Shown: positions 7,682 to 54,254, counted from the first letter of the stretch. The stretch: 64,000 nt of DNA from an uncultured Pseudomonadota bacterium (GCA_963709335.1 CAVPWB010000009.1:90997-154996), one strand, 5' to 3'. Notes: a model not told the origin generated them from the letters alone. Program-made: numbers and translations.

Positions 7682-8383
7682 CTAGCGTGCACCGGGCCGC
7701 TCGCGATGGAATGCGAGTACGGCCTCGGTCACCTCGGCAATCGACAGATCGGTCGTATCGAGGATCACGGCGTCGCGGGCCGGCACGAGCGGGGCTGCTG
7801 CTCGCGTCGAATCCCGGGCGTCACGCTCCCGGATATCGCGCAAAAGACCCTGAATGGTAACCGAGATTCCTTTTGCGATCAACTGCTTATGCCGCCGTTC
7901 GGCGCGCTGTTCGGCGCTGGCGGTCAGGAAAACCTTCAATTGCGCATCCGGGAAAACGACGGTACCCATGTCGCGCCCCTCGGCGACCAGCCCGGGCGCC
8001 GCCCGGAAGGCACGCTGCCGCTCGATCAGCGCACGGCGCAGGCTCGCGTGGACCGCGATCTGCGACGCAACCGATGACACCTCCTCGGTTCGCAGCGCAT
8101 CGGCGACGTCGCGGCCGTCGAGCATCGCCCGGCCCCCGCGAAAAGAGATGTCGAGGCCCGGGCACAGCTCGACGAGCCGCGCGGCATCCGTCGGATCGAT
8201 CGAGCGCTCGAGCGCCTGCAGCGCGATCAGCCGGTACAACGATCCGCTGTCGAGGTAATGAAATCCGAGCGCGCGCGCGACGCTCCAGGCGATCGTGCCC
8301 TTGCCGGAAGCGGCCGGCCCGTCGATCGCGATAACGGGCGGCCTCACCGCGGCCGGTGCGGCAGGCGTTGCAGGCTCAGCCAT
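7682..8383 (-). CDS. cmk: cytidylate kinase
   Basis: ORF 7682..8488 trimmed to the ATG at 8383-8381 ([10 protein letters not shown]...). P-loop [14 protein letters not shown]. Overlaps the aroA stop by 8 nt. Confidence 0.9.
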
Positions 8384-45998: not shown

Positions 45999-47216
45999 AT
46001 GTCACATGGTGAAGCCGATTCGGCGTCCGCGTGGATTCGTCTCGCAATAACGCTGGCGCTCTCGACGATCGGCGGCGTCGGCATGTGGTCCGTCGTCGTC
46101 GCCCTGCCCGCGGTTCAGACGGAATTCGGTGTCGCGCGCGCCGATGCGTCGCTGCCGTACACGCTGACCATGATTTCATTCGGCCTCGCCGGCATCGCGA
46201 TGGGCCGACTGTCCGATCGGTTCGGCGTGATGACGCCAGTGATGCTCGGCACGTTGCTGCTCGCGCTCGGCTACGTGGCCGCCAGCTACGCACCGTCGCT
46301 TGGCACGTACACGCTCGCGCAGGGCGCGCTGATCGGCGCCGGCAGCTCGGCGACGTTCGCGCCGCTCATCGCCCACACGTCGCTGTGGTTCGTGCGCCGG
46401 CGCGGCATCGCGGTTGCGATCTTCGCCAGCGGCAACTACCTCGCAGGCGCGCTATGGCCGCCGGTCGTCGAGCATTTCATCCGTACCGACGGATGGCGTC
46501 ACACATACCTGGGCATCGCAGTCTTCTGCGTCGCGACGCTGGTGCCGCTCACGCTGTTGCTGCGGAAAAAGCCGCCGCTCGGCGACGGCACAGGCGCGAC
46601 GGTCACCACGCGCAAGCTGTCGCCGGAGTCGCTCGGGCTGTCGGCCAGAGGGCTGCAGTCCCTGCTGATCATCGCCGGACTGTCATGCTGCGTTGCGATG
46701 GCGATGCCGCAGGTGCACCTCGTCGCGTATTGCAGCGACCTGGGCTACGGTCCGGCGCGTGGAGCGGAGATGCTGTCGCTGATGCTCGCGTGCGGCATCG
46801 TCAGCCGCCTGGTGTTCGGCGGCATCTGCGACCGGATCGGCGGCCTGCGTACGCTGCTGCTCGGCTCGGTGCTTCAGGGCACGGCGCTGCTGCTGTTCCT
46901 GCCGTTCAACGGCCTCGTGTCGCTGTACGTAATTTCGGCGCTGTTCGGACTGTTCCAGGGTGGCCTCGTGTCGACGTACCCGATCATCATCCGCGAATTT
47001 TTCGATCGTGCGGAAGCGGGCGCGCGCGTGGCGACGGTCATCATGGCCACGCTGTTCGGCATGGCGCTGGGCGGCTGGATGTCCGGCGCGATATTCGACG
47101 TCACCGGCTCGTATCGCGCGGCGTTCCTGAACGGCAGTGCGTGGAACCTCGTCAACGTGTCGATCGTGGCGTGGCTGTTGCGGCGTTCGATTCGGCCGCG
47201 GGCGTTCGCAGCGTAG
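45999..47216 (+). CDS. MFS transporter (oxalate/formate-antiporter-like architecture)
   Basis: ORF 45666..47216 trimmed to the ATG at 45999 (MSHGEADSASAWIRLAITLALSTIGGVGMWS...). 12-TM pattern with GRLSDRFG loop motif. 11 nt after the preceding MFS gene. Confidence 0.8.
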   Translation: MSHGEADSASAWIRLAITLALSTIGGVGMWSVVVALPAVQTEFGVARADASLPYTLTMISFGLAGIAMGRLSDRFGVMTPVMLGTLLLALGYVAASYAPSLGTYTLAQGALIGAGSSATFAPLIAHTSLWFVRRRGIAVAIFASGNYLAGALWPPVVEHFIRTDGWRHTYLGIAVFCVATLVPLTLLLRKKPPLGDGTGATVTTRKLSPESLGLSARGLQSLLIIAGLSCCVAMAMPQVHLVAYCSDLGYGPARGAEMLSLMLACGIVSRLVFGGICDRIGGLRTLLLGSVLQGTALLLFLPFNGLVSLYVISALFGLFQGGLVSTYPIIIREFFDRAEAGARVATVIMATLFGMALGGWMSGAIFDVTGSYRAAFLNGSAWNLVNVSIVAWLLRRSIRPRAFAA

Positions 47217-47227
47217 GCCTGCGCTGC
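47208..47227. terminator. weak hairpin between convergent MFS and aldo/keto reductase genes
   Basis: GCAGCG-taggcctg-CGCTGC followed by ttt. It overlaps both gene ends. Short stem, so low confidence. Confidence 0.25.
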
Positions 47228-47228
47228 T

Positions 47229-48176
47229 TTACGCGCTCGCCTGATCGAGCGCGCGCACCGCATCCGCGTCGAGCCGCAGGCGCGTGGCGGCAATGAGCTC
47301 GCCCAGCTGCTCGACCGACGTCGCGCTCGCGATGGGTGCCGTGAGTCCGGGACGGTCGATGAGCCACGCCAGCGCGACTGCGGCCGGCGTCGCATGCTTG
47401 TCGGCCGCGACGCGATCGAGCGCCGCGAGAATGCGCAGACCGCGCGGATTCAGGTACTTCGACATGCCCCCGCCCCGGGCACTCTTCGCGAAGTCGGCCT
47501 CCGACCGGTACTTGCCGGTGAGAAAGCCGGCCGCGAGCGCGAAGTAACTGATGACGCCGATGCCCTCCCGGATGCACAGGCTGGCGAGCGGCCCTTCGAA
47601 TGTCGCGCGATCGTAGAGGTTGTAGGGCGGCTGCAGCGTCAGGTAGCGCGGGAGGCCGTTGCGGGCACTGACGTCGAGCGCCTGCTGCAAGCGATCGGCG
47701 GACAGGTTCGACGCCCCGATCGCCCTGACCTTCCCCTGTGCGATCAGCGTCGCATAGGCCTCGAGCGTTTCGTCCAGCGGCGTTGTCTCGTCGTCCCAGT
47801 GCGACTGGTAGAGATCGATCGCGTCGACCTGCAGACGCCGCAGCGACGCCTCGGCCGCCTGCAGGATGTAGTCCTTGCGCAGGCACTTGCGGCCAAGCCC
47901 CATGTCGGAGCCTACTTTCGTCGCGATGACGACGTCGTCGTGGCGACCCCGCGCCGCGATCCAGCGGCCGATGATCGTTTCCGACTCGCCGCCCTGGTGG
48001 CCGGTGACCCAGCGCGAATACGAATCGGCCGTGTCGATCAGGTTGAAGCCGGCGTCGACGAACGCGTCGAGCAGACGGAACGACGTCGCTTCGTCGACGG
48101 TCCAGCCGAACACGTTGCCGCCGAACGCAAGGGGCGCGACGTCGAATCCGGTATTGCCAAGCTTGCGACGATTCAT
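47229..48176 (-). CDS. aldo/keto reductase
   Basis: 315 aa: MNRRKLGNTGFDVAPLAFGGNVFG...LIDTADSYS...GASN. ATG 48176-48174 overlaps the stop of the upstream UDG-fusion gene (ATGA). Confidence 0.85.
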   Translation of the reverse strand: MNRRKLGNTGFDVAPLAFGGNVFGWTVDEATSFRLLDAFVDAGFNLIDTADSYSRWVTGHQGGESETIIGRWIAARGRHDDVVIATKVGSDMGLGRKCLRKDYILQAAEASLRRLQVDAIDLYQSHWDDETTPLDETLEAYATLIAQGKVRAIGASNLSADRLQQALDVSARNGLPRYLTLQPPYNLYDRATFEGPLASLCIREGIGVISYFALAAGFLTGKYRSEADFAKSARGGGMSKYLNPRGLRILAALDRVAADKHATPAAVALAWLIDRPGLTAPIASATSVEQLGELIAATRLRLDADAVRALDQASA

Positions 48177-49597
48177 CCAACTCCTCCTGGAATGGGCGGC
48201 GCGAGTGCAGCGGCGCGTCGCAAGTCATCGACCAGCGTTTGCAGCAACGCTGTTCGGGCAGCATCATCCGGCGCACGCAGGATCGCTGCCGGATGATACG
48301 TCGCGACCAGTCGGCGACCCTCGGCAAGCTGCAAGGGTCGTGCACGCGCCGCGGCGATCGCCATCTTCTGACCCGTCAGCGCGAAGAGCGCACTCGCGCC
48401 GAGCGCCACGACGACGCGCGGCTTCACGTGGCGCATTTCGTCGTCGAGCCAGTGCCGGCACGCGGCCACCGCCTGTTGCGACGGCGTCTTGTGAATCCGG
48501 CGCTTGCCGCGCGGCTCCCAATTGAAATGCTTGACGGCGTTGGTGATGTAGACGTCGTCCGCGGCGATACCGGCGCGTTCGAGCGCATTGCGCAGCAGCT
48601 TGCCGGCAGGCCCGACGAAGGGCTCGCCCGCGAGATCCTCCGCGTCGCCGGGTTGCTCGCCGACGAGCATCAATGCGGCGCGCGGCGGGCCCTTGCCGTT
48701 GACACCTTGCGTCGCTCGTTCCCACAACGGACAGCGGCGACAGCCATCGATGTCGGCTTTCGTCGGTGCTGCATCGCCCGGTGCGCGGGCAGCGACAGGC
48801 GCCGGCTCACGCGCCTGCGTGCGTGGGAGCCTGGGCGCCGACACAGTCTCGACCATCCGGCCAGCCCGCTGCGACGCCATGGCAACGAGCTCCGGAATTC
48901 GCGTCGCCTCCGGCAGGTTCGCCCAATATTTCTGCGGCATCTCCTTCTGCATCGCGCGAACGTTGAGACGTGCAGGATTGAAGATGCTCTCGTAGTAAAG
49001 AAGCCACAGCGCTTCCTTCGCGTCGTGCGCAGGACGCGCGATCGACGCGTCGTACGGCAGCAGCGCGAGCGCCGAACGATCCCAGTGCGCGATGCCGTCC
49101 GGCGTGACGATCGTCCAGACCATCGTCGCGAAGCGCTTGACGAAAAACGGTGCCGTCCGTGCGACGATGCGGTGCGAAGGCTCGTACCAGGCAATCCACG
49201 TCGACTCCGCGGCGCCTTCATCGCGCACTTCGCGAAAACGGACGAACGCCGTCATCTTGTGGCTGTCGAGTCGAACCGCGCGCACCATTCGCGCAACGAC
49301 GCGCACGTCGTCATCGGCGGCATCGTCGAGCAAACGCGGCTCTCCGTGGGTCACCCGCCACAGCAGCCGGTACATGACGTAAAACCGACGCTCGTCGCGG
49401 TGGCACGCCGCGGTCTCCAGCATTTCGTAGAGCTGCTGCGAGATGCGAAACGAGCCGGCGTCGCCGCTGCTCGCGACGGGGTCCGGCGCAGCGAGCACAG
49501 GCCTCTGGCGCGCATCGTCCCACTGGGCGTGCTCGGGCGCGACACCCGCTGCAAGCAGCGTACGAGCCCTTGCACGCCAGTCTGCGAATTCGTTCAC
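48173..49597 (-). CDS. DUF4130-type domain fused to a family-4/UdgX-like uracil-DNA glycosylase domain (TIGR03915/TIGR03914-like partner of the radical SAM protein)
   Basis: ORF 48173..49984 is over-extended into the upstream gene. I chose the in-frame GTG at 49597 (VNEFADWRARARTLLAAGV...), 8 nt after the radical SAM stop. DUF4130-like region KMTAFVRFREV...WIAWYEPSHRIV. UDG part CRRCPLW, LVGEQPGDAEDLAGEPFVGPAG, GKRRIHKTP, YHPAAILR. Confidence 0.8.
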   Translation of the reverse strand: MNEFADWRARARTLLAAGVAPEHAQWDDARQRPVLAAPDPVASSGDAGSFRISQQLYEMLETAACHRDERRFYVMYRLLWRVTHGEPRLLDDAADDDVRVVARMVRAVRLDSHKMTAFVRFREVRDEGAAESTWIAWYEPSHRIVARTAPFFVKRFATMVWTIVTPDGIAHWDRSALALLPYDASIARPAHDAKEALWLLYYESIFNPARLNVRAMQKEMPQKYWANLPEATRIPELVAMASQRAGRMVETVSAPRLPRTQAREPAPVAARAPGDAAPTKADIDGCRRCPLWERATQGVNGKGPPRAALMLVGEQPGDAEDLAGEPFVGPAGKLLRNALERAGIAADDVYITNAVKHFNWEPRGKRRIHKTPSQQAVAACRHWLDDEMRHVKPRVVVALGASALFALTGQKMAIAAARARPLQLAEGRRLVATYHPAAILRAPDDAARTALLQTLVDDLRRAAALAPPIPGGVG

Positions 49598-49605
49598 CGC
49601 ACTTG

Positions 49606-50823
49606 CTACAAAAGCGGCAGTTGTTGCGCCGGCGAGGCAAGCCGTGCGCGCAGCGCCGGTGTCGCCAACGCAGCGTGCCGGGGCCGGTGATCGACCGTGA
49701 CGACAAACGGCTCGGCCTTGCGAACGTCGCAGCGCAGCTTGACGAGATCGGCGTACCGCACGCGCCGCTGGCGCCGCAGCGCAAGCAGCCGCTTGACATT
49801 GCGCACGCCCAGGCCCGGCACGCGCAGCAGCGCCGCGCGCTCGGCAGCGTTGACATCGACGGGGAACGCCTCGCGATGCGCAAGTGCCCATGCGAGCTTC
49901 GGATCGATGTCGAGGTCGAGTTGTCCCCCGCGAAGCGGTGCGACGATCTCGTCTGCGCCGTAACCGTAGTGCTGAAGGAGCCAATCGGCCTGATAAAGAC
50001 GATGCTCGCGCGCCAGCGCCGGGGCTTGCACGGGCAGTTGCGCCGATGCGTGCGGAATGGGACTGAACGCCGAGTAATAGACGCGCCGCAGGCCATACGC
50101 CGCGTACAGCGTTTCGGCGGTGCGCAGGAACGTCGCGTCGGTTGACCCATCCGCTCCGACGATGAGTTGCGTGCTCTGCCCTGCCGGCGCAAAGCGACCC
50201 GATCGTGGCTCGGCCCGCGCGTGGTCACGAAAGGTGCGGATCCGCCCCATCGCGAGCTTGATCGTATGAATGCTCTTTTCCGGTGCGAGCGCCCTCAGCC
50301 CCGCTTCAGTCGGAATCTCGACATTGATGGACAGGCGATCGGCATATCGCCCGGCATCGCGAATCAGCCGCTCGTCGGCCTCGGGAATGGTCTTCAGGTG
50401 GATGTAGCCGCGAAAGTCGTGAACGGTCCGCAACGTGCGCGCAACGTCGACGAGTTGCTCCATCGTGTAGTCGGCGTTGCGGATGATTCCCGACGACAGG
50501 AACAGGCCCTCGATGTAATTGCGGCGGTAGAAATCGAGCGTCAGGTTGACGACTTCGCCGGTCGTGAAGCGCGCACGGCGCACATCGCTCGACCGCCGAT
50601 TGACGCAGTAGTGGCAGTCGTAGACGCAGAAATTCGTCAGCAGGATCTTGAGCAGCGAGATGCAGCGGCCATCGGGTGCGTACGAATGGCATATACCGGA
50701 CCCGGTGGTCGAGCCCAGGCCGCCGCTCGCCGACGATTGACGGCCGGCCGCACCGCTGCTGGCGCACGACGCGTCGTACTTCGCGGCGTCGGCGAGCAGC
50801 GCCAGCTTGCGGGACAGTTCCAT
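49606..50823 (-). CDS. putative DNA modification/repair radical SAM protein (TIGR03916-like)
   Basis: ORF 49606..51477 trimmed to the ATG at 50823-50821 (MELSRKLALLADAAKYDASCASSG...). Radical SAM CVYDCHYC. RNYIEGLFLSSGI, GYIHLKTIP. C-terminal helix-hairpin-helix-like LLRVPGLGVRNVKRLLALR. Confidence 0.85.
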   Translation of the reverse strand: MELSRKLALLADAAKYDASCASSGAAGRQSSASGGLGSTTGSGICHSYAPDGRCISLLKILLTNFCVYDCHYCVNRRSSDVRRARFTTGEVVNLTLDFYRRNYIEGLFLSSGIIRNADYTMEQLVDVARTLRTVHDFRGYIHLKTIPEADERLIRDAGRYADRLSINVEIPTEAGLRALAPEKSIHTIKLAMGRIRTFRDHARAEPRSGRFAPAGQSTQLIVGADGSTDATFLRTAETLYAAYGLRRVYYSAFSPIPHASAQLPVQAPALAREHRLYQADWLLQHYGYGADEIVAPLRGGQLDLDIDPKLAWALAHREAFPVDVNAAERAALLRVPGLGVRNVKRLLALRRQRRVRYADLVKLRCDVRKAEPFVVTVDHRPRHAALATPALRARLASPAQQLPLL

Positions 50824-50842
50824 TCGTGACCGGACCAGAGAG

Positions 50843-50858
50843 CCGTATAAGTATACGG
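50843..50858. promoter_or_regulatory. perfect palindrome CCGTATA-AG-TATACGG, candidate operator of the radical SAM operon
   Basis: 7+7 inverted repeat, 19 nt upstream of the radical SAM ATG. On the coding (minus) strand it contains a -10-like TATACT. Same geometry as the CTGT-N8-ACAG LexA box. Confidence 0.4.
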
Positions 50859-50960
50859 TATGAGGACACGGCGCCCGCAAGCAAAGTTCCGCGTTTGCGG
50901 GCGCATGCGCGGGGCTTTGTTGCGAGGCTGGTTTCGCTCGCCTGTTCAACGTTCGTGCAA

Positions 50961-51677
50961 CTACGCGGTGTCGGTGCGGGCCTCGCGTTCCGCCTCGTAA
51001 CGCGCGCGGGTCTCGGCATTGGGCGGATAAAGCCCGAGCAGCGGCGCCCCGCGGCCCACCTCCTGCATGATCCACGCCTCGAGCTGCTCCTGCTCGAGCG
51101 CAAGCGCCACGACCTCGTCGACGAGCGCGGCCGGAATGACGACGGCGCCGTCGTCGTCGGCAACGATCACGTCGTCGGGAAACACGGCGACGCCGCCGCA
51201 GCCGATTGGTTCCTGCCAGTTGACGAACGTCAATCCGGCCACCGACGGCGGCGCGGCCGCGCCGGCGCACCACACCGGCAATTGCGTCCCGAGAACGCCT
51301 TGCAGATCGCGGACGACACCGTCGGTGACCAGTGCCGCGACGCCGCGCTGACGCATCCGCGCGCACAGGATGTCGCCGAAAATGCCCGCGTCGGTCACGC
51401 CGCGCGCATCGACGATGGCGATGCAGCCCGCCGGCATCGCTTCGATCGCGCCGCGCGTCGACGTCGGCTTGGCCCATGACTCGGGCGTCGCCTGGTCTTC
51501 ACGCGCCGGGATGAAGCGCAGCGTGAACGCGCGTCCGACGGTACGCGGCTGGCCGGTGCGGATCGGCTGCGTGCCGCGCATCCAGACATTGCGCAGTCCC
51601 TTTTTCAGCAACAGCGTCGTGAGCGTGGCGGTCGTCACGCTGGACAATGCGGCAATCGTCGTACGGGGAAGGTCCAT
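50961..51677 (-). CDS. RraA-family protein (regulator of RNase E activity A / HMG-aldolase-oxaloacetate decarboxylase fold)
   Basis: ATG at 51677 preceded by GGAG (a GTG at 51704 is also open). LTTLLLKKGLRNVWM, AIVDARGVTDAGIFGDILCARMRQRGVAALVTDGVVRD and PGDVI-like FPDDVIVADDDGAVVIP. Confidence 0.75.
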   Translation of the reverse strand: MDLPRTTIAALSSVTTATLTTLLLKKGLRNVWMRGTQPIRTGQPRTVGRAFTLRFIPAREDQATPESWAKPTSTRGAIEAMPAGCIAIVDARGVTDAGIFGDILCARMRQRGVAALVTDGVVRDLQGVLGTQLPVWCAGAAAPPSVAGLTFVNWQEPIGCGGVAVFPDDVIVADDDGAVVIPAALVDEVVALALEQEQLEAWIMQEVGRGAPLLGLYPPNAETRARYEAEREARTDTA

Positions 51678-51705
51678 GCGGTCTCCGCTCTCGATCGTGG
51701 GCACG

Positions 51706-51975
51706 CTAGCGCAATTCGCCGGCGACGAGCTCGTCGACGTAGCACCACACCCACGCTTCGCCAGGCTCGATCGAGCGGATCAGCGGATGCTGGGTGCGAC
51801 GGAAATGATGCGTGGCATGCTGGTTCTTGGACGCATCGCAGCAGCCGACGTTGCCGCATTCGAGGCATAACCGCAGATGCACCCACGTGTCGCCGAGCTT
51901 CACGCATTCGGCGCAGACGTGCGTAGCGGCCCGCGTGATCTTCACGGTATCGAGGTGGGTGCAGGCGGTTGCCAT
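51706..51975 (-). CDS. UBP-type zinc-finger domain protein
   Basis: 89 aa: CTHLDTV...HVCAECVKLGDTWVHLRLCLECGNVGCCDASKNQHATHHFRRTQHPLIRS...WVWCYVDE, the Cys/His pattern of zf-UBP. Confidence 0.75.
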   Translation of the reverse strand: MATACTHLDTVKITRAATHVCAECVKLGDTWVHLRLCLECGNVGCCDASKNQHATHHFRRTQHPLIRSIEPGEAWVWCYVDELVAGELR

Positions 51976-51984
51976 CGAGAGGTC

Positions 51985-52926
51985 CTAGTGGTTGGGGGTC
52001 GACGCATTTTCGACGCGTTCGAGTGCCGCGCGGTTCCACTGCGCGAGATCGGCGCCCGCTGCGTAGGTCGATTCGCAGAAGTCGCGCAACGCAGCGCTCG
52101 GCGAGCGCGCCGCGCGAACGTCGTCGTACATCAGCACGAACTCCCCGAGTGCTGCGCGATACGCGGCCGCTGCGGGCAGCACAGGCTGGTCGCGCAATCC
52201 CGCAGGCTCCGGCGCCGTATACGCATAGAACGCTGCATCGGCGATATCACCGCTGCCGGGCCAGAAGCCGACGCTGCTCACTTCGTGCGAGTACGCTTCC
52301 TGCGTGATGCGATCGGCACCGGGCCGCTCCGGCGCGCGGCGCCCCGAGAAGCGCGTCACGCAAAGATCGAAGCTGCCCCAGAAGAAATGCACCGGACTGC
52401 ATTTGCCGATGAATCCCGCACGGAATGCATTGAACGCGGTGTCGACAGTGACCAGTATCTGCGCAAAGCGCGCGACGGCTTCGCGATCGTAGCTCGCGTG
52501 GACCGTATCGTCTTCGAAGCGGATCGGGTTGGGGATCTCCACCGGCATCGTCCAGATGGCGACATCGATCCCGGCGTCGTGCAACAGCGTCATCAGGGCG
52601 CGATGAAAGTCCGCCACCGACCGCGGCTCGAGCGGCAGCGAATGACGGGCACCGTCCCCGACATCGAGCACCAGCGTGTGCGAGACGAAGTCGAACCGGA
52701 TCGCGAACGCACGGCCGCGATACGGCATCATCGATGTCGTGAGGCCGCATGGGTACACGTACAGCGGCACGTTCCACCAGTGATTGACCCTCGGCGTGAC
52801 GGCGAGGCGAATCTTGCCGACGACCTGCGTCCACATGTGCAGCGTCTCGCACGTGGCCTGCCATTCGCGCAGCGGCAGCGCCGGCCAGCATGCCGGCGAA
52901 TCGAATGCGGTGCTGGTGTCCGTCAT
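51985..52926 (-). CDS. conserved hypothetical protein (resembles the DUF5996 family)
   Basis: 313 aa: WPALPLREWQATCETLHMWTQVVGKIRLAVTPRVNHWWNVPLYV... I recognise this as the DUF5996-type N-terminus. The identification is from memory and not verified. Confidence 0.55.
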   Translation of the reverse strand: MTDTSTAFDSPACWPALPLREWQATCETLHMWTQVVGKIRLAVTPRVNHWWNVPLYVYPCGLTTSMMPYRGRAFAIRFDFVSHTLVLDVGDGARHSLPLEPRSVADFHRALMTLLHDAGIDVAIWTMPVEIPNPIRFEDDTVHASYDREAVARFAQILVTVDTAFNAFRAGFIGKCSPVHFFWGSFDLCVTRFSGRRAPERPGADRITQEAYSHEVSSVGFWPGSGDIADAAFYAYTAPEPAGLRDQPVLPAAAAYRAALGEFVLMYDDVRAARSPSAALRDFCESTYAAGADLAQWNRAALERVENASTPNH

Positions 52927-54254
52927 GGCGAGCCACTCCCGTCGTTGCGTTCGGCGCGCGGCGCACGTGCCGCCGATCCGGTCACCGACGCGCGGCGACC
53001 GTTGCGCCAGCGGTGCACGGCGCCCCCGGCAACGACCAGTGCAGCACCCCCCGCAACCGCGGGCAACGGCAGGCTGGACGCGAGCAGCACGCAGCCGAAC
53101 AGTCCGGCCACGGGCAACGCAAGGGCTCCGCGACGCTCACGCGCATTCAGCGTTATCGCCGACGCATTCGCGATCGCATAGTAAAGCAGGACGGCGAACG
53201 AGCTGAAGCCGATCGCCTCGCGGATGTCGGCGACGATGACGATCGCCGCGACGATCGCGCCGGCCGCGACCTCGGCACGATCGGGGATCCGATGATGCGG
53301 ATGCACCGAGGCGAGCCATCGCGGCAGGTCCCCGTTGGCAGCCATTGCGAACGTCGTTCGGCTGATGCCAGCCAGCAGCGACAGCAGCACGCCGAGCGAC
53401 GCAACGGCTGCGCCGACGCGAACCGCAGGCAACCATTCGGCGAAGCGTCCACTCGAGACGGCGGCGGCGAGCGGCGCCGCCGTTGCGGCCAGCACATCGG
53501 CGCCCACCGCGGCGAGCGCACTGATCGCCACGATCGCGTATATGACGAGCACGATGCCAAGCGCGATTGGGATCGCGCGCGGTATCGTTCGCTCGGGTGC
53601 AACGACTTCCTCGCCGAGCGTCGCGATCCGCGCGTACCCCGCAAACGCGAAGAAGAGGAACCCCGCGGCCTCCAGTATCCCGTTCCAGCCCTTGCCGAGG
53701 GTGGGCACCGCGCGCGCCGGGTCGGCGCTGCCGCCGAATACGGCTGCCGTCACGACGAGCGCGAGACACCCGAGCACGAACGCCACGATCACGCGGGTCG
53801 CGAACACGGTCTTCGCGACGCCGAAATAGTTGACGGCGGTCAGTACGACGACGGCCAGCACGGCAAGCGGCCGCGCGAACGCCGGCGCGGCGTAGGTGGC
53901 GAACGTCAGCGCCATCGCCGCGCAGCTCGCGAGCTTGCCGACGACGAAGCACCAGCCGGCGAGGAAGCCCCACGCATCGCCGAGACGCTTGCGGCCATAG
54001 ACGTACGCGCCCCCGGACTCCGGATAAAGTGCCGCGAGCGCCGCCGACGACGTCGCGTTGCAGTACGCGACGAACCCCGCAATGAGAAGGCCGATCAGCA
54101 GGCCGTCGCCCGCAGCGCGCGCAGCGGGCGCAATGGCGGCAAAGACGCCTGCGCCGAGCATCGCGCCTAAGCCGATGACAACCGCGTCGGCGGTGCCGAG
54201 CTTTCTCGCGAGGCGCGTGGGCGCTGCGGTGCCCGTCGGTGGGTCGACGTTCAT
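52923..54254 (-). CDS. APC-superfamily amino acid permease
   Basis: 443 aa, about 12 TM segments. LGTADAVVIGLGAMLGAGVFAA...ALYPESGGAYVYG. The stop overlaps the start of the next gene (ATGA). Confidence 0.85.
   Translation of the reverse strand: MNVDPPTGTAAPTRLARKLGTADAVVIGLGAMLGAGVFAAIAPAARAAGDGLLIGLLIAGFVAYCNATSSAALAALYPESGGAYVYGRKRLGDAWGFLAGWCFVVGKLASCAAMALTFATYAAPAFARPLAVLAVVVLTAVNYFGVAKTVFATRVIVAFVLGCLALVVTAAVFGGSADPARAVPTLGKGWNGILEAAGFLFFAFAGYARIATLGEEVVAPERTIPRAIPIALGIVLVIYAIVAISALAAVGADVLAATAAPLAAAVSSGRFAEWLPAVRVGAAVASLGVLLSLLAGISRTTFAMAANGDLPRWLASVHPHHRIPDRAEVAAGAIVAAIVIVADIREAIGFSSFAVLLYYAIANASAITLNARERRGALALPVAGLFGCVLLASSLPLPAVAGGAALVVAGGAVHRWRNGRRASVTGSAARAPRAERNDGSGSP

Follow-up and report, generated by a model that had tools for sequence, protein, structure and literature searches.

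A radical SAM and DUF4130-UdgX gene pair behind a putative variant SOS box in an uncultured Pseudomonadota bacterium

Within a 64,000-nucleotide (nt) stretch of DNA from an uncultured Pseudomonadota bacterium (GCA_963709335.1 CAVPWB010000009.1:90997-154996; hereafter the window, to which all coordinates refer), two minus-strand genes encode a radical S-adenosylmethionine (SAM) protein of the TIGR03916 family and a fusion of a DUF4130 domain to a uracil-DNA glycosylase (UDG) domain of the UdgX family. Our reading, to which we give a probability of about 0.6, is that the pair forms an SOS operon repressed by LexA and encodes a three-module complex that processes DNA lesions. Four rival explanations, namely ordinary base excision repair (BER), direct lesion reversal in the manner of spore photoproduct lyase (SPL), resolution of UdgX adducts, and MiaB-like modification, are less likely, and each is weighed below beside the evidence that bears on it.

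The preliminary description of this DNA, made from the sequence alone, had presented the pair as the strongest candidate for an undescribed system in the window. It is instead a regular member of a family that has a TIGRFAMs definition and an NCBI name, has been treated by the groups of Aravind and Erill, and is partly characterized through UdgX; the family is already catalogued. The claim that the pair is uncharacterized stood up to literature searches for the radical SAM/DUF4130 core and fell for UdgX, whose biochemistry and structure have been worked out since 2015 (PMC4787834, PMC10359453). Its statement that the role was unknown survives for the substrate and chemistry of the radical SAM enzyme, while regulation by SOS or DNA damage had been published (PMC8565304, PMC12392091) and a DUF4130:radical SAM complex predicted (bioRxiv 10.64898/2026.08.19.745780).

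The radical SAM protein

Both open reading frames (ORFs) lie where the preliminary description had put them, separated by 8 nt (49598-49605), and in metagenome contigs with identical proteins independent gene calls give the same 405- and 474-residue products at the same spacing. We judge them genuine, and no accident of a GC-rich genome, because their matches to the hidden Markov models (HMMs) TIGR03916, TIGR03915 and TIGR03914, all of which had been anticipated, far exceed the cut-offs, and because Pfam finds Radical_SAM in the first product and DUF4130 and UDG in the second. The cysteine and helix-hairpin-helix (HhH) motifs quoted earlier are likewise all present (Table 1). The nearest named relatives of the two proteins are metagenome-assembled genomes (MAGs) of Casimicrobiaceae at 78-79% identity, which are not classical Burkholderiales, and the earlier placement in that order is approximate only.

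The product of gene 1 scores 538.4 bits against TIGR03916 (curated cut-off 343.5), with residues 3-399 of 405 covered, and Pfam adds a Fer4_12 match that, at 17.5 bits, stays below the gathering score of 22. The protein has more than 8000 homologues, and HMMER, run exhaustively against 1.84 billion representatives, gave 861 clusters (50% identity) at E<=1e-30. Its CxxxCxxC motif is invariant in 81/81 relatives and at least 90% conserved in an alignment with 15 distant representatives; the protein P0501 lacks it. Four further residues, C20, C45, H46 and C54, do not vary among the members from proteobacteria and Verrucomicrobia (81/81), a pattern that suggests a second metal site. The extra N-terminal cysteines to which the preliminary description drew attention are thus real and invariant in one subfamily, and missing from several distant members. 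These absences place them outside the universal catalytic core and weaken the idea of an obligatory auxiliary Fe-S cluster; the region is also poorly modelled (predicted local distance difference test, pLDDT, below 50). The C-terminal HhH segment proved real as well, since Pfam detects HHH_3/HHH in homologues at the matching position, and P336, G337 and G339 are conserved within it.

MiaB-type methylthiotransferases are the best fold match of the modelled structure, and they resemble the window protein in the order of an N-terminal cysteine region, a radical SAM barrel and then a nucleic-acid-binding module. The resemblance amounts to a template modelling (TM) score of about 0.33 at 16% identity and covers the barrel only, whereas Pfam finds neither the UPF0004 nor the TRAM domain in the window protein and the extra cysteines are not universal in the TIGR03916 family. 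At E<=0.01 no PADLOC defence-system model matches the radical SAM protein, the fusion protein or the aldo-keto reductase (AKR) encoded downstream, and a role as a defence system was dropped for that reason.

One rival explanation makes the enzyme a "dark photolyase" like SPL, reversing a UV-induced pyrimidine dimer while the UDG handles uracils that arise from deaminated cytosines in dimers. We consider this improbable, yet it survives better than the other rivals. SPL is, to our knowledge, the only DNA-repair radical SAM enzyme, and the DNA-binding HhH segment together with SOS and UV regulation would suit such a role, as would the label "SplB-like" that Aravind and colleagues gave to the DUF4130-associated radical SAM protein. 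Against it, nothing in NCBIfam except TIGR03916 matches the protein at E<=0.001, no SPL or SplB model included; a search of PDB sequences detects no relative apart from a weak RuvA-like match in the HhH segment; and the top 50 fold matches do not include SPL. An SPL-like identity, having neither HMM nor fold support, was set aside, and "SplB-like" is an unfit label for the TIGR03916 family because no SPL model matches the window protein, while the other SOS-regulated radical SAM family, PA0069/Rv2578c, does match TIGR04070, weakly. SplB and the PA0069/Rv2578c family (COG1533) share with the window protein the radical SAM assignment, SOS control and a presumed action on DNA, and the PA0069-type gene of this lineage even shares the variant SOS box described below, but they form a separate family with no HMM cross-match, and the window protein differs from them in its C-terminal HhH and its obligate DUF4130 partner.

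The DUF4130-UdgX fusion protein

For a LexA-repressed complex that processes lesions, the second gene would supply the other two modules. Its N-terminal part scores 195.5 bits against TIGR03915 (cut-off 112.25) and 126.8 bits against PF13566, the DUF4130 model (cut-off 27; 1e-36). The C-terminal domain, called family-4-like in the preliminary description, by its sequence and fold belongs instead to the biochemically characterized UdgX family. It carries every UdgX signature and scores 274.1 bits against TIGR03914 (cut-off 189.95), a model whose present NCBIfam name is "UdgX family uracil-DNA binding protein", and phmmer against PDB sequences gives E values of 1e-48 to UdgX of Mycobacterium smegmatis (MsmUdgX) and 1e-29 to family-4 UDGs. 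An AlphaFold2 model of the whole fusion protein (pLDDT 77) has a disordered linker between the domains (residues 253-274, pLDDT below 50). The top 30 Foldseek matches of this model are all UdgX, with target-normalized TM scores of 0.82-0.89, a root-mean-square deviation of ~1.9 A and 50% identity, in a result dominated by the UdgX domain.

MsmUdgX (MSMEG_0265; PDB 6AIL, 6AJO, 6IOD) thus has the same fold as the C-terminal 240 residues of the window protein at about 50% identity, and the two share the GEQPG, KRRIH and HPxxxLR motifs. Motif B of the window protein reads HPAAILR (residues 435-441; family pattern HPS(S/A)(L/V)(L/V)R), with H435, P436 and R441 invariant, and the equivalents of E52, Q53, D56, D59, F65, H109, H178 and R184 all show no variation across 19 aligned fusion proteins (A3). 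C286, C289 and C380, invariant in the fusion proteins, align with MsmUdgX cysteines, among them the Fe-S ligand C27, and are three candidate [4Fe-4S] ligands. The differences lie mainly in context: MsmUdgX is a stand-alone orphan of ~210 residues with unrelated neighbours, whereas the window domain is the C-terminal part of a 474-residue DUF4130 fusion whose gene is translationally coupled to a radical SAM gene under a putative LexA box. In addition, the window R-loop is 2 residues shorter and has Asn in place of K97.

MsmUdgX excises uracil and its His109 then bonds to C1' of the abasic sugar, and mutation of His109 restores ordinary turnover (PMC4787834, PMC10359453). By homology, the window domain is expected to excise uracil and then to bond covalently to the abasic site. 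If it were a turnover enzyme instead, the pair could be an ordinary BER operon in which the glycosylase clears uracil or wrongly inserted bases once error-prone synthesis has taken place, with the HhH protein merely helping it to bind DNA. This explanation, which we rate a shade below SPL-like reversal, can point to the family-4 subfamily model TIGR00758, which is just passed (131.3 against 125.3 bits), and to the label "UDG-based BER system" that SOS-regulon papers give the pair. The UdgX-specific model scores twice as high, however, and the domain departs from classical family 4 in having GEQPG rather than GE(A/G)PG as motif A and in possessing the KRRIH insertion; by definition UdgX motif A has Gln where family 4 has Ala/Gly, and its E52 and Q53 have assigned roles (PMC10359453). 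The His of KRRIH, the loop nucleophile, is kept in 51/51 of the fusions in the survey below, and in MsmUdgX turnover returns when this residue is mutated. Furthermore, the partner is a bona fide radical SAM enzyme, more than a DNA binder, and about 30% of the systems have no UDG at all.

The pair across genomes

The case for a single lesion-processing complex draws on how the modules are combined elsewhere. A survey of one genome per species yielded 80 loci, drawn from Verrucomicrobia and from the alpha, beta and gamma classes of Proteobacteria. Downstream sequence of 800 nt or more was available for 74 of them, and every one of these has a DUF4130 ORF on the same strand 3' of the radical SAM gene, mostly within a few tens of nt, in keeping with the constant adjacency asserted in the preliminary description. 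The frequent fusion to a UDG that it mentioned was also borne out: in 51/72 loci the DUF4130 gene also encodes a UdgX domain, and in the other 21/72, all sampled Pseudomonas included, DUF4130 stands alone and UdgX is found neither in its gene nor anywhere within 8 kb. Among the longer of the 861 clusters are natural single-chain Radical_SAM-HHH_3-DUF4130 proteins (P0364, P0366, P0376), and by the Rosetta-stone argument such fusions indicate that the two products of the window would form one complex. A 2026 preprint gives a confident AlphaFold3 prediction of a DUF4130:radical SAM heterodimer (ipSAE 0.80) and describes DUF4130 as a decayed DHH/DHHA1-like nucleotide-binding fold (bioRxiv 10.64898/2026.08.19.745780). 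From adjacency, natural fusions and this published prediction, we infer that the radical SAM and DUF4130 proteins form a complex.

Across the 80 loci, the pair has no further gene family as a neighbour at a constant position. The candidates imuA/imuB/dnaE2, SRAP, Ku/LigD and AKR are not conserved there, and the recurrent neighbour clusters are generic paralogue families at scattered positions. Because no third gene is conserved, the radical SAM-DUF4130 pair appears to be a self-contained module. Within the larger assembly, the pair would be the functional core and UdgX an accessory module for targeting and shielding, since some 30% of sampled systems lack UdgX and mycobacterial UdgX works alone. 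The idea that the characterized mycobacterial UdgX adjoins such a pair was ruled out, its gene being an orphan, and this is probably why a literature search returned no paper naming both UdgX and radical SAM.

Because the three modules are physically linked, one may also ask whether the core serves UdgX rather than the reverse, with the radical SAM and DUF4130 proteins using radical chemistry to undo the crosslink between UdgX and DNA, or else other adducts at abasic sites or between DNA and protein. UdgX adducts are tolerated in a RecA-dependent manner; alone they are irreversible and need RecA-dependent or proteolytic processing (PMC4787834, PMC10359453), which would give such an activity a purpose. 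The distribution of the genes goes against it, since the 21 systems just described have the core pair without UdgX and mycobacteria have UdgX without the pair. We also know of no chemical precedent for radical resolution of a UdgX crosslink, and we hold this possibility to be as doubtful as ordinary BER.

A putative variant SOS box before the operon

The remaining support for a LexA-repressed lesion-processing operon comes from its regulation. In several phyla the operon is regulated by SOS or DNA damage (PMC8565304, PMC12392091), and published work on Verrucomicrobia, Alphaproteobacteria and Bacteroidetes places a "COG1573-COG4277 UDG operon" under SOS control. LexA-less Acinetobacter has both genes, radical SAM and TIGR03915, in its DdaA damage regulon, and there they respond to desiccation. 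We take the COG1573-COG4277 operon to be the window pair, given the presumed identity of COG4277. Our own scan of orthologues looked for the LexA motif of each lineage within 120 nt of the radical SAM start, with background expressed per 123-nt window. CTG-N10-CAG was present in 16/17 betaproteobacterial and 17/18 gammaproteobacterial loci (background 0.04 for each), GAAC-N7-GAAC in 23/25 alphaproteobacterial loci (0.004) and TGTTC-N4-GAAC in 4/7 verrucomicrobial loci (0.0007). Orthologous operons carry, in other words, their own lineage's canonical LexA box at a position equivalent to that of the window box.

In the window this position is taken by a perfect 7+7 palindrome, CCGTATA-CT-TATACGG, which ends 19 nt before the radical SAM start; two flanking bases per side complete a 20-bp box that is the sole such site in the window (Table 1). 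TACCGyAT-N4-ATrCGGTA is kept in relatives with 71-100% radical SAM identity, while the surrounding spacer has diverged. Instances of the variant box include L095:9923-9942 and L096:9981-10000, with further ones in L097-L216. A metagenome scan with the variant 20-mer gave 120 loci, and neighbours were counted in the 37 with a GC content of at least 0.58. The box adjoins lexA in 11/37 (TIGR00498, 218 bits; for example L105, L124, L138, L157, L167, L174, L203 and L213), the error-prone polymerase gene dnaE2 in 4/37 (NF004225, 1525 bits; L111, L123, L158, L204), a TIGR03916 radical SAM gene in 2/37 and a PA0069-family radical SAM gene in 1/37 (L173). The lexA promoters in these contigs have the layout TTGAC-N17-TATAAT-N5-box-N4-6-start, and all of the LexA proteins read F-S-T-(A/P)-S-S-A-E-D-H where E. 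coli has F-R-S-P-N-A-A-E-E-H, with the recognition-helix changes N41S, A42S and E45D (E. coli numbering).

On these comparisons we conclude that CCG-N10-CGG serves as the SOS box of a GC-rich betaproteobacterial lineage related to Casimicrobiaceae, and because it would be the box of this lineage, we infer, with strong comparative evidence, that LexA represses the window operon. Two other sources of the CCGT...ACGG palindrome were considered and ruled out: a decayed or lost LexA box and a private, dedicated regulator are both at odds with a variant that is conserved while its flanks diverge and that precedes lexA itself. No report of a CCG-N10-CGG LexA motif was found in the literature searched, outside which two relevant LexA-motif studies fall. 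By HMM scores, gene order, fusion architecture and upstream SOS box, the window system is a full member of the TIGR03916/TIGR03915/TIGR03914 pair, and it differs only in this operator, where others have CTG-N10-CAG, and in a clade-specific downstream AKR.

That the damage response regulates the operon in five lineages or more points to repair or tolerance and speaks against the least likely of the four rivals, a MiaB/RlmN-type modification of DNA or RNA bases (methylthiolation, methylation) for epigenetic marking or phage defence, which the best fold matches (MiaB, HydE, BioB and LipA, all two-cluster enzymes), the three extra Cys and one His invariant in the subfamily, and the preprint authors' own likening of the complex to MiaB and preference for nucleic-acid modification (bioRxiv 10.64898/2026.08.19.745780) would favour, but for which those fold matches are weak and based on the common barrel, the extra Cys and His are missing from several distant members, UPF0004 and TRAM domains are not found, PADLOC gives no match, and no restriction or methylase partner is conserved.

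Flanking genes and other elements

Table 1. Features of the operon, with positions in the window
Feature	Coordinates	Strand	Remarks
Gene 1, radical SAM (TIGR03916)	49606-50823	minus	ATG start, 405 residues
CVYDCHYC (CxxxCxxC; C66/C70/C73, residues 66-73)	50605-50628	minus	binds the SAM-cleaving [4Fe-4S] cluster
N-terminal Cys/His region C20, C45, H46, C54 (YDASCASSG...GICHSYAPDGRC)	50662-50766	minus	candidate second metal or Fe-S site
HhH DNA-binding motif LLRVPGLGVRNVKRLLALR	49774-49830	minus	weak RuvA domain II match
Gene 2, DUF4130-UdgX fusion	48173-49597	minus	GTG start, 474 residues
DUF4130/TIGR03915 domain (residues 3-231 of 474)	48905-49591	minus	predicted nucleic-acid-binding partner of the radical SAM protein
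UdgX-family uracil-DNA-binding (suicide glycosylase) domain (residues 234-461)	48215-48898	minus	assigned by TIGR03914 and fold
UdgX motif A, GEQPG (E52, Q53 equivalents)	48647-48661	minus	invariant in A3
UdgX R-loop, KRRIH (His369, the H109 equivalent)	48491-48505	minus	His invariant in A3
Putative lineage-specific SOS (LexA) box TACCGTATACTTATACGGCT (gene strand)	50841-50860		CCGT-N8-ACGG core; ends 17 nt before the radical SAM start codon
GGAACTT element	50884-50890	minus	27-30 nt upstream of the SOS box
AKR gene	47229-48176	minus	ATG overlaps the stop codon of the UdgX fusion by 4 nt (ATGA)

The AKR gene is probably co-transcribed and translationally coupled with the DUF4130-UdgX gene in this clade only. 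An Aldo_ket_red gene with the same ATGA overlap occurs in the closest relatives (L081, L082, L083, L086, L087, L089), and the neighbour is absent from L095 and L096 and from the 80 genome loci. It may act on aldehydic DNA-damage products or be a mere passenger. Upstream of the operon, at 50961-54254 on the minus strand, lie genes for an RraA-like protein, a small zf-UBP protein, a DUF5996 protein and an amino-acid permease. Close relatives (L081, L082, L085 and L086) share this synteny, but more distant ones have unrelated neighbours; because synteny is confined to close relatives, these genes are placed outside the system.

Between the RraA-like gene and the operon promoter there is a 10-bp perfect inverted repeat, GCGCCCGCAA / TTGCGGGCGC, with a 14-nt loop (50871-50904), which may be a terminator or insulator of the upstream gene, though it has no T-run. 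Rfam finds no structured RNA or riboswitch in the leader (47000-52000 scanned), and a scan of the operon region for a sigma-70 consensus promoter found none. The GGAACTT element is equally placed in 8/11 clade sequences (the window, L082, L085, L086, L087, L089, L095 and L096), with TCC/TCA-type bases ~16 nt after it. This arrangement is more like the -35 and -10 elements of extracytoplasmic function (ECF, sigma-E-type) promoters than like the TTGAC-N17-TATAAT lexA promoters of the lineage, and, speculatively, GGAACTT may be the -35 of an ECF-like, non-sigma-70 promoter that gives the operon a second stress-sigma input.

Three further observations concern operators elsewhere. In four of the 37 variant-box loci, on independent contigs, a protein of ~100 residues (MRFAIRLLRYRGRVIPWRDV...) with no NCBIfam match begins 5 nt after the box (L097:4437-4739, L113:850-1152, L128:605-907, L178), and it is a candidate uncharacterized member of the SOS regulon of this lineage. 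In Xanthomonadales/Lysobacterales the palindrome GTCTCA-N5-TGAGAC precedes the operon in 10/13 loci (L005, L009, L019, L023, L037 at 7963-7983, L039, L041, L047, L050, L066), ~25-45 nt upstream of the radical SAM start; the strict form occurs once per Xanthomonadales locus, at the operon, and has one occurrence in 1 Mb of other loci. It is unlike the LexA box of Xanthomonas, which we take to be TTAGTA...TACTAA. Finally, a MAG labelled "Burkholderiaceae" has CGAACGATCGTTCC upstream of the radical SAM gene (L049:2440-2460), a Cheo-box-like motif of the form GAAC-N4-GTTC that reportedly matches the non-canonical betaproteobacterial LexA motif of Sanchez-Alberola et al. from 2015.

A model for a proposed SOS-induced complex

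If these predictions are combined, LexA would sit on the CCG-N10-CGG box just upstream of the radical SAM start in undamaged cells, a step with strong support, and damage would lift the repression. The radical SAM-HhH protein and DUF4130 would then assemble into one complex with DUF4130 and the HhH segment keeping DNA in place at the radical SAM active site. By homology, the UdgX domain, on its flexible linker, would flip out a uracil and cleave the glycosidic bond, whereupon His369 would attack C1'. The covalent trap would both shield the abasic site from strand breakage and anchor the complex there. The uracil is expected to come from cytosine deamination in single-stranded DNA exposed by damage, or from dUMP incorporation. 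As a working guess, the [4Fe-4S]/SAM site would generate a 5'-deoxyadenosyl radical that abstracts a hydrogen from a nearby damaged nucleotide or sugar, and the lesion would be reversed or processed. The shielding part of this model has a functional parallel in HMCES/YedK (SRAP domain), which is SOS-associated and forms a covalent bond with abasic sites of single-stranded DNA (PMC3765255). The likeness is one of function only, since fold and chemistry are unrelated (a Cys2 thiazolidine as opposed to the His-C1' bond of UdgX) and SRAP proteins have neither a glycosylase step nor a radical SAM partner.

Several points weigh against a LexA-repressed lesion-processing complex. On the side of regulation, LexA binding to a CCG-type box is deduced from sequence, two flanking positions of the window box differ from the clade consensus, and the conserved upstream operator of Xanthomonadales matches no recognized LexA motif. 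On the side of the enzyme, the model of the radical SAM protein is mediocre (pLDDT 66.9, with residues 1-85 unmodelled), and its best fold matches are generic barrels (MiaB, HydE, BioB, LipA and HydG, TM 0.30-0.38). The radical step is wholly conjectural, because literature searches turned up no experimental work with a TIGR03916 or TIGR03915 protein and hence no biochemical characterization of the core. The design itself would be odd, since a suicide crosslinker fused to a catalytic complex makes the whole complex single-turnover. There is also the case of the mycobacteria, where neither a radical SAM nor a DUF4130 gene lies within 6 kb of UdgX and the neighbours are unrelated; UdgX is independent of partners there, and its function here could be independent too. 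The covalent uracil-DNA complex has been shown for this mycobacterial orphan UdgX only (PMC4787834, PMC10359453).

Implications

As an individual instance the window operon is ordinary: it adds no new component to the family, and what it contributes is a clear-cut case of the operon standing behind a LexA-box variant that looks previously unreported. The system to which it belongs is a good target for biochemistry, the radical SAM/DUF4130 pair being among the most widespread members of DNA-damage regulons without a known reaction. UdgX, for its part, already serves as a reagent for genomics and base editing, while its discoverers state that its physiological role "remains largely unknown" (PMC10359453).

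What is new here is the explicit, quantified link between UdgX and the radical SAM/DUF4130 core, together with the natural radical SAM-DUF4130 fusions and the variant LexA box with its matching recognition-helix substitutions, which is unreported in the literature searched (with the same two relevant studies outside it). UdgX usually occurs, in proteobacteria and Verrucomicrobia, as part of the DUF4130 subunit; this subunit is always paired with the radical SAM enzyme, and sometimes fused to it, and the unit stands under the host lineage's own damage-response operator. The farthest-reaching interpretation, which we offer tentatively and think unlikely to hold in full, is that the physiological role of UdgX would be that of a targeting and abasic-site-shielding module in an SOS-induced radical SAM repair machine whose core carries out an undescribed radical repair or processing of DNA, the second DNA-repair chemistry of a radical SAM enzyme after that of SPL, present in a sizeable fraction of bacteria.

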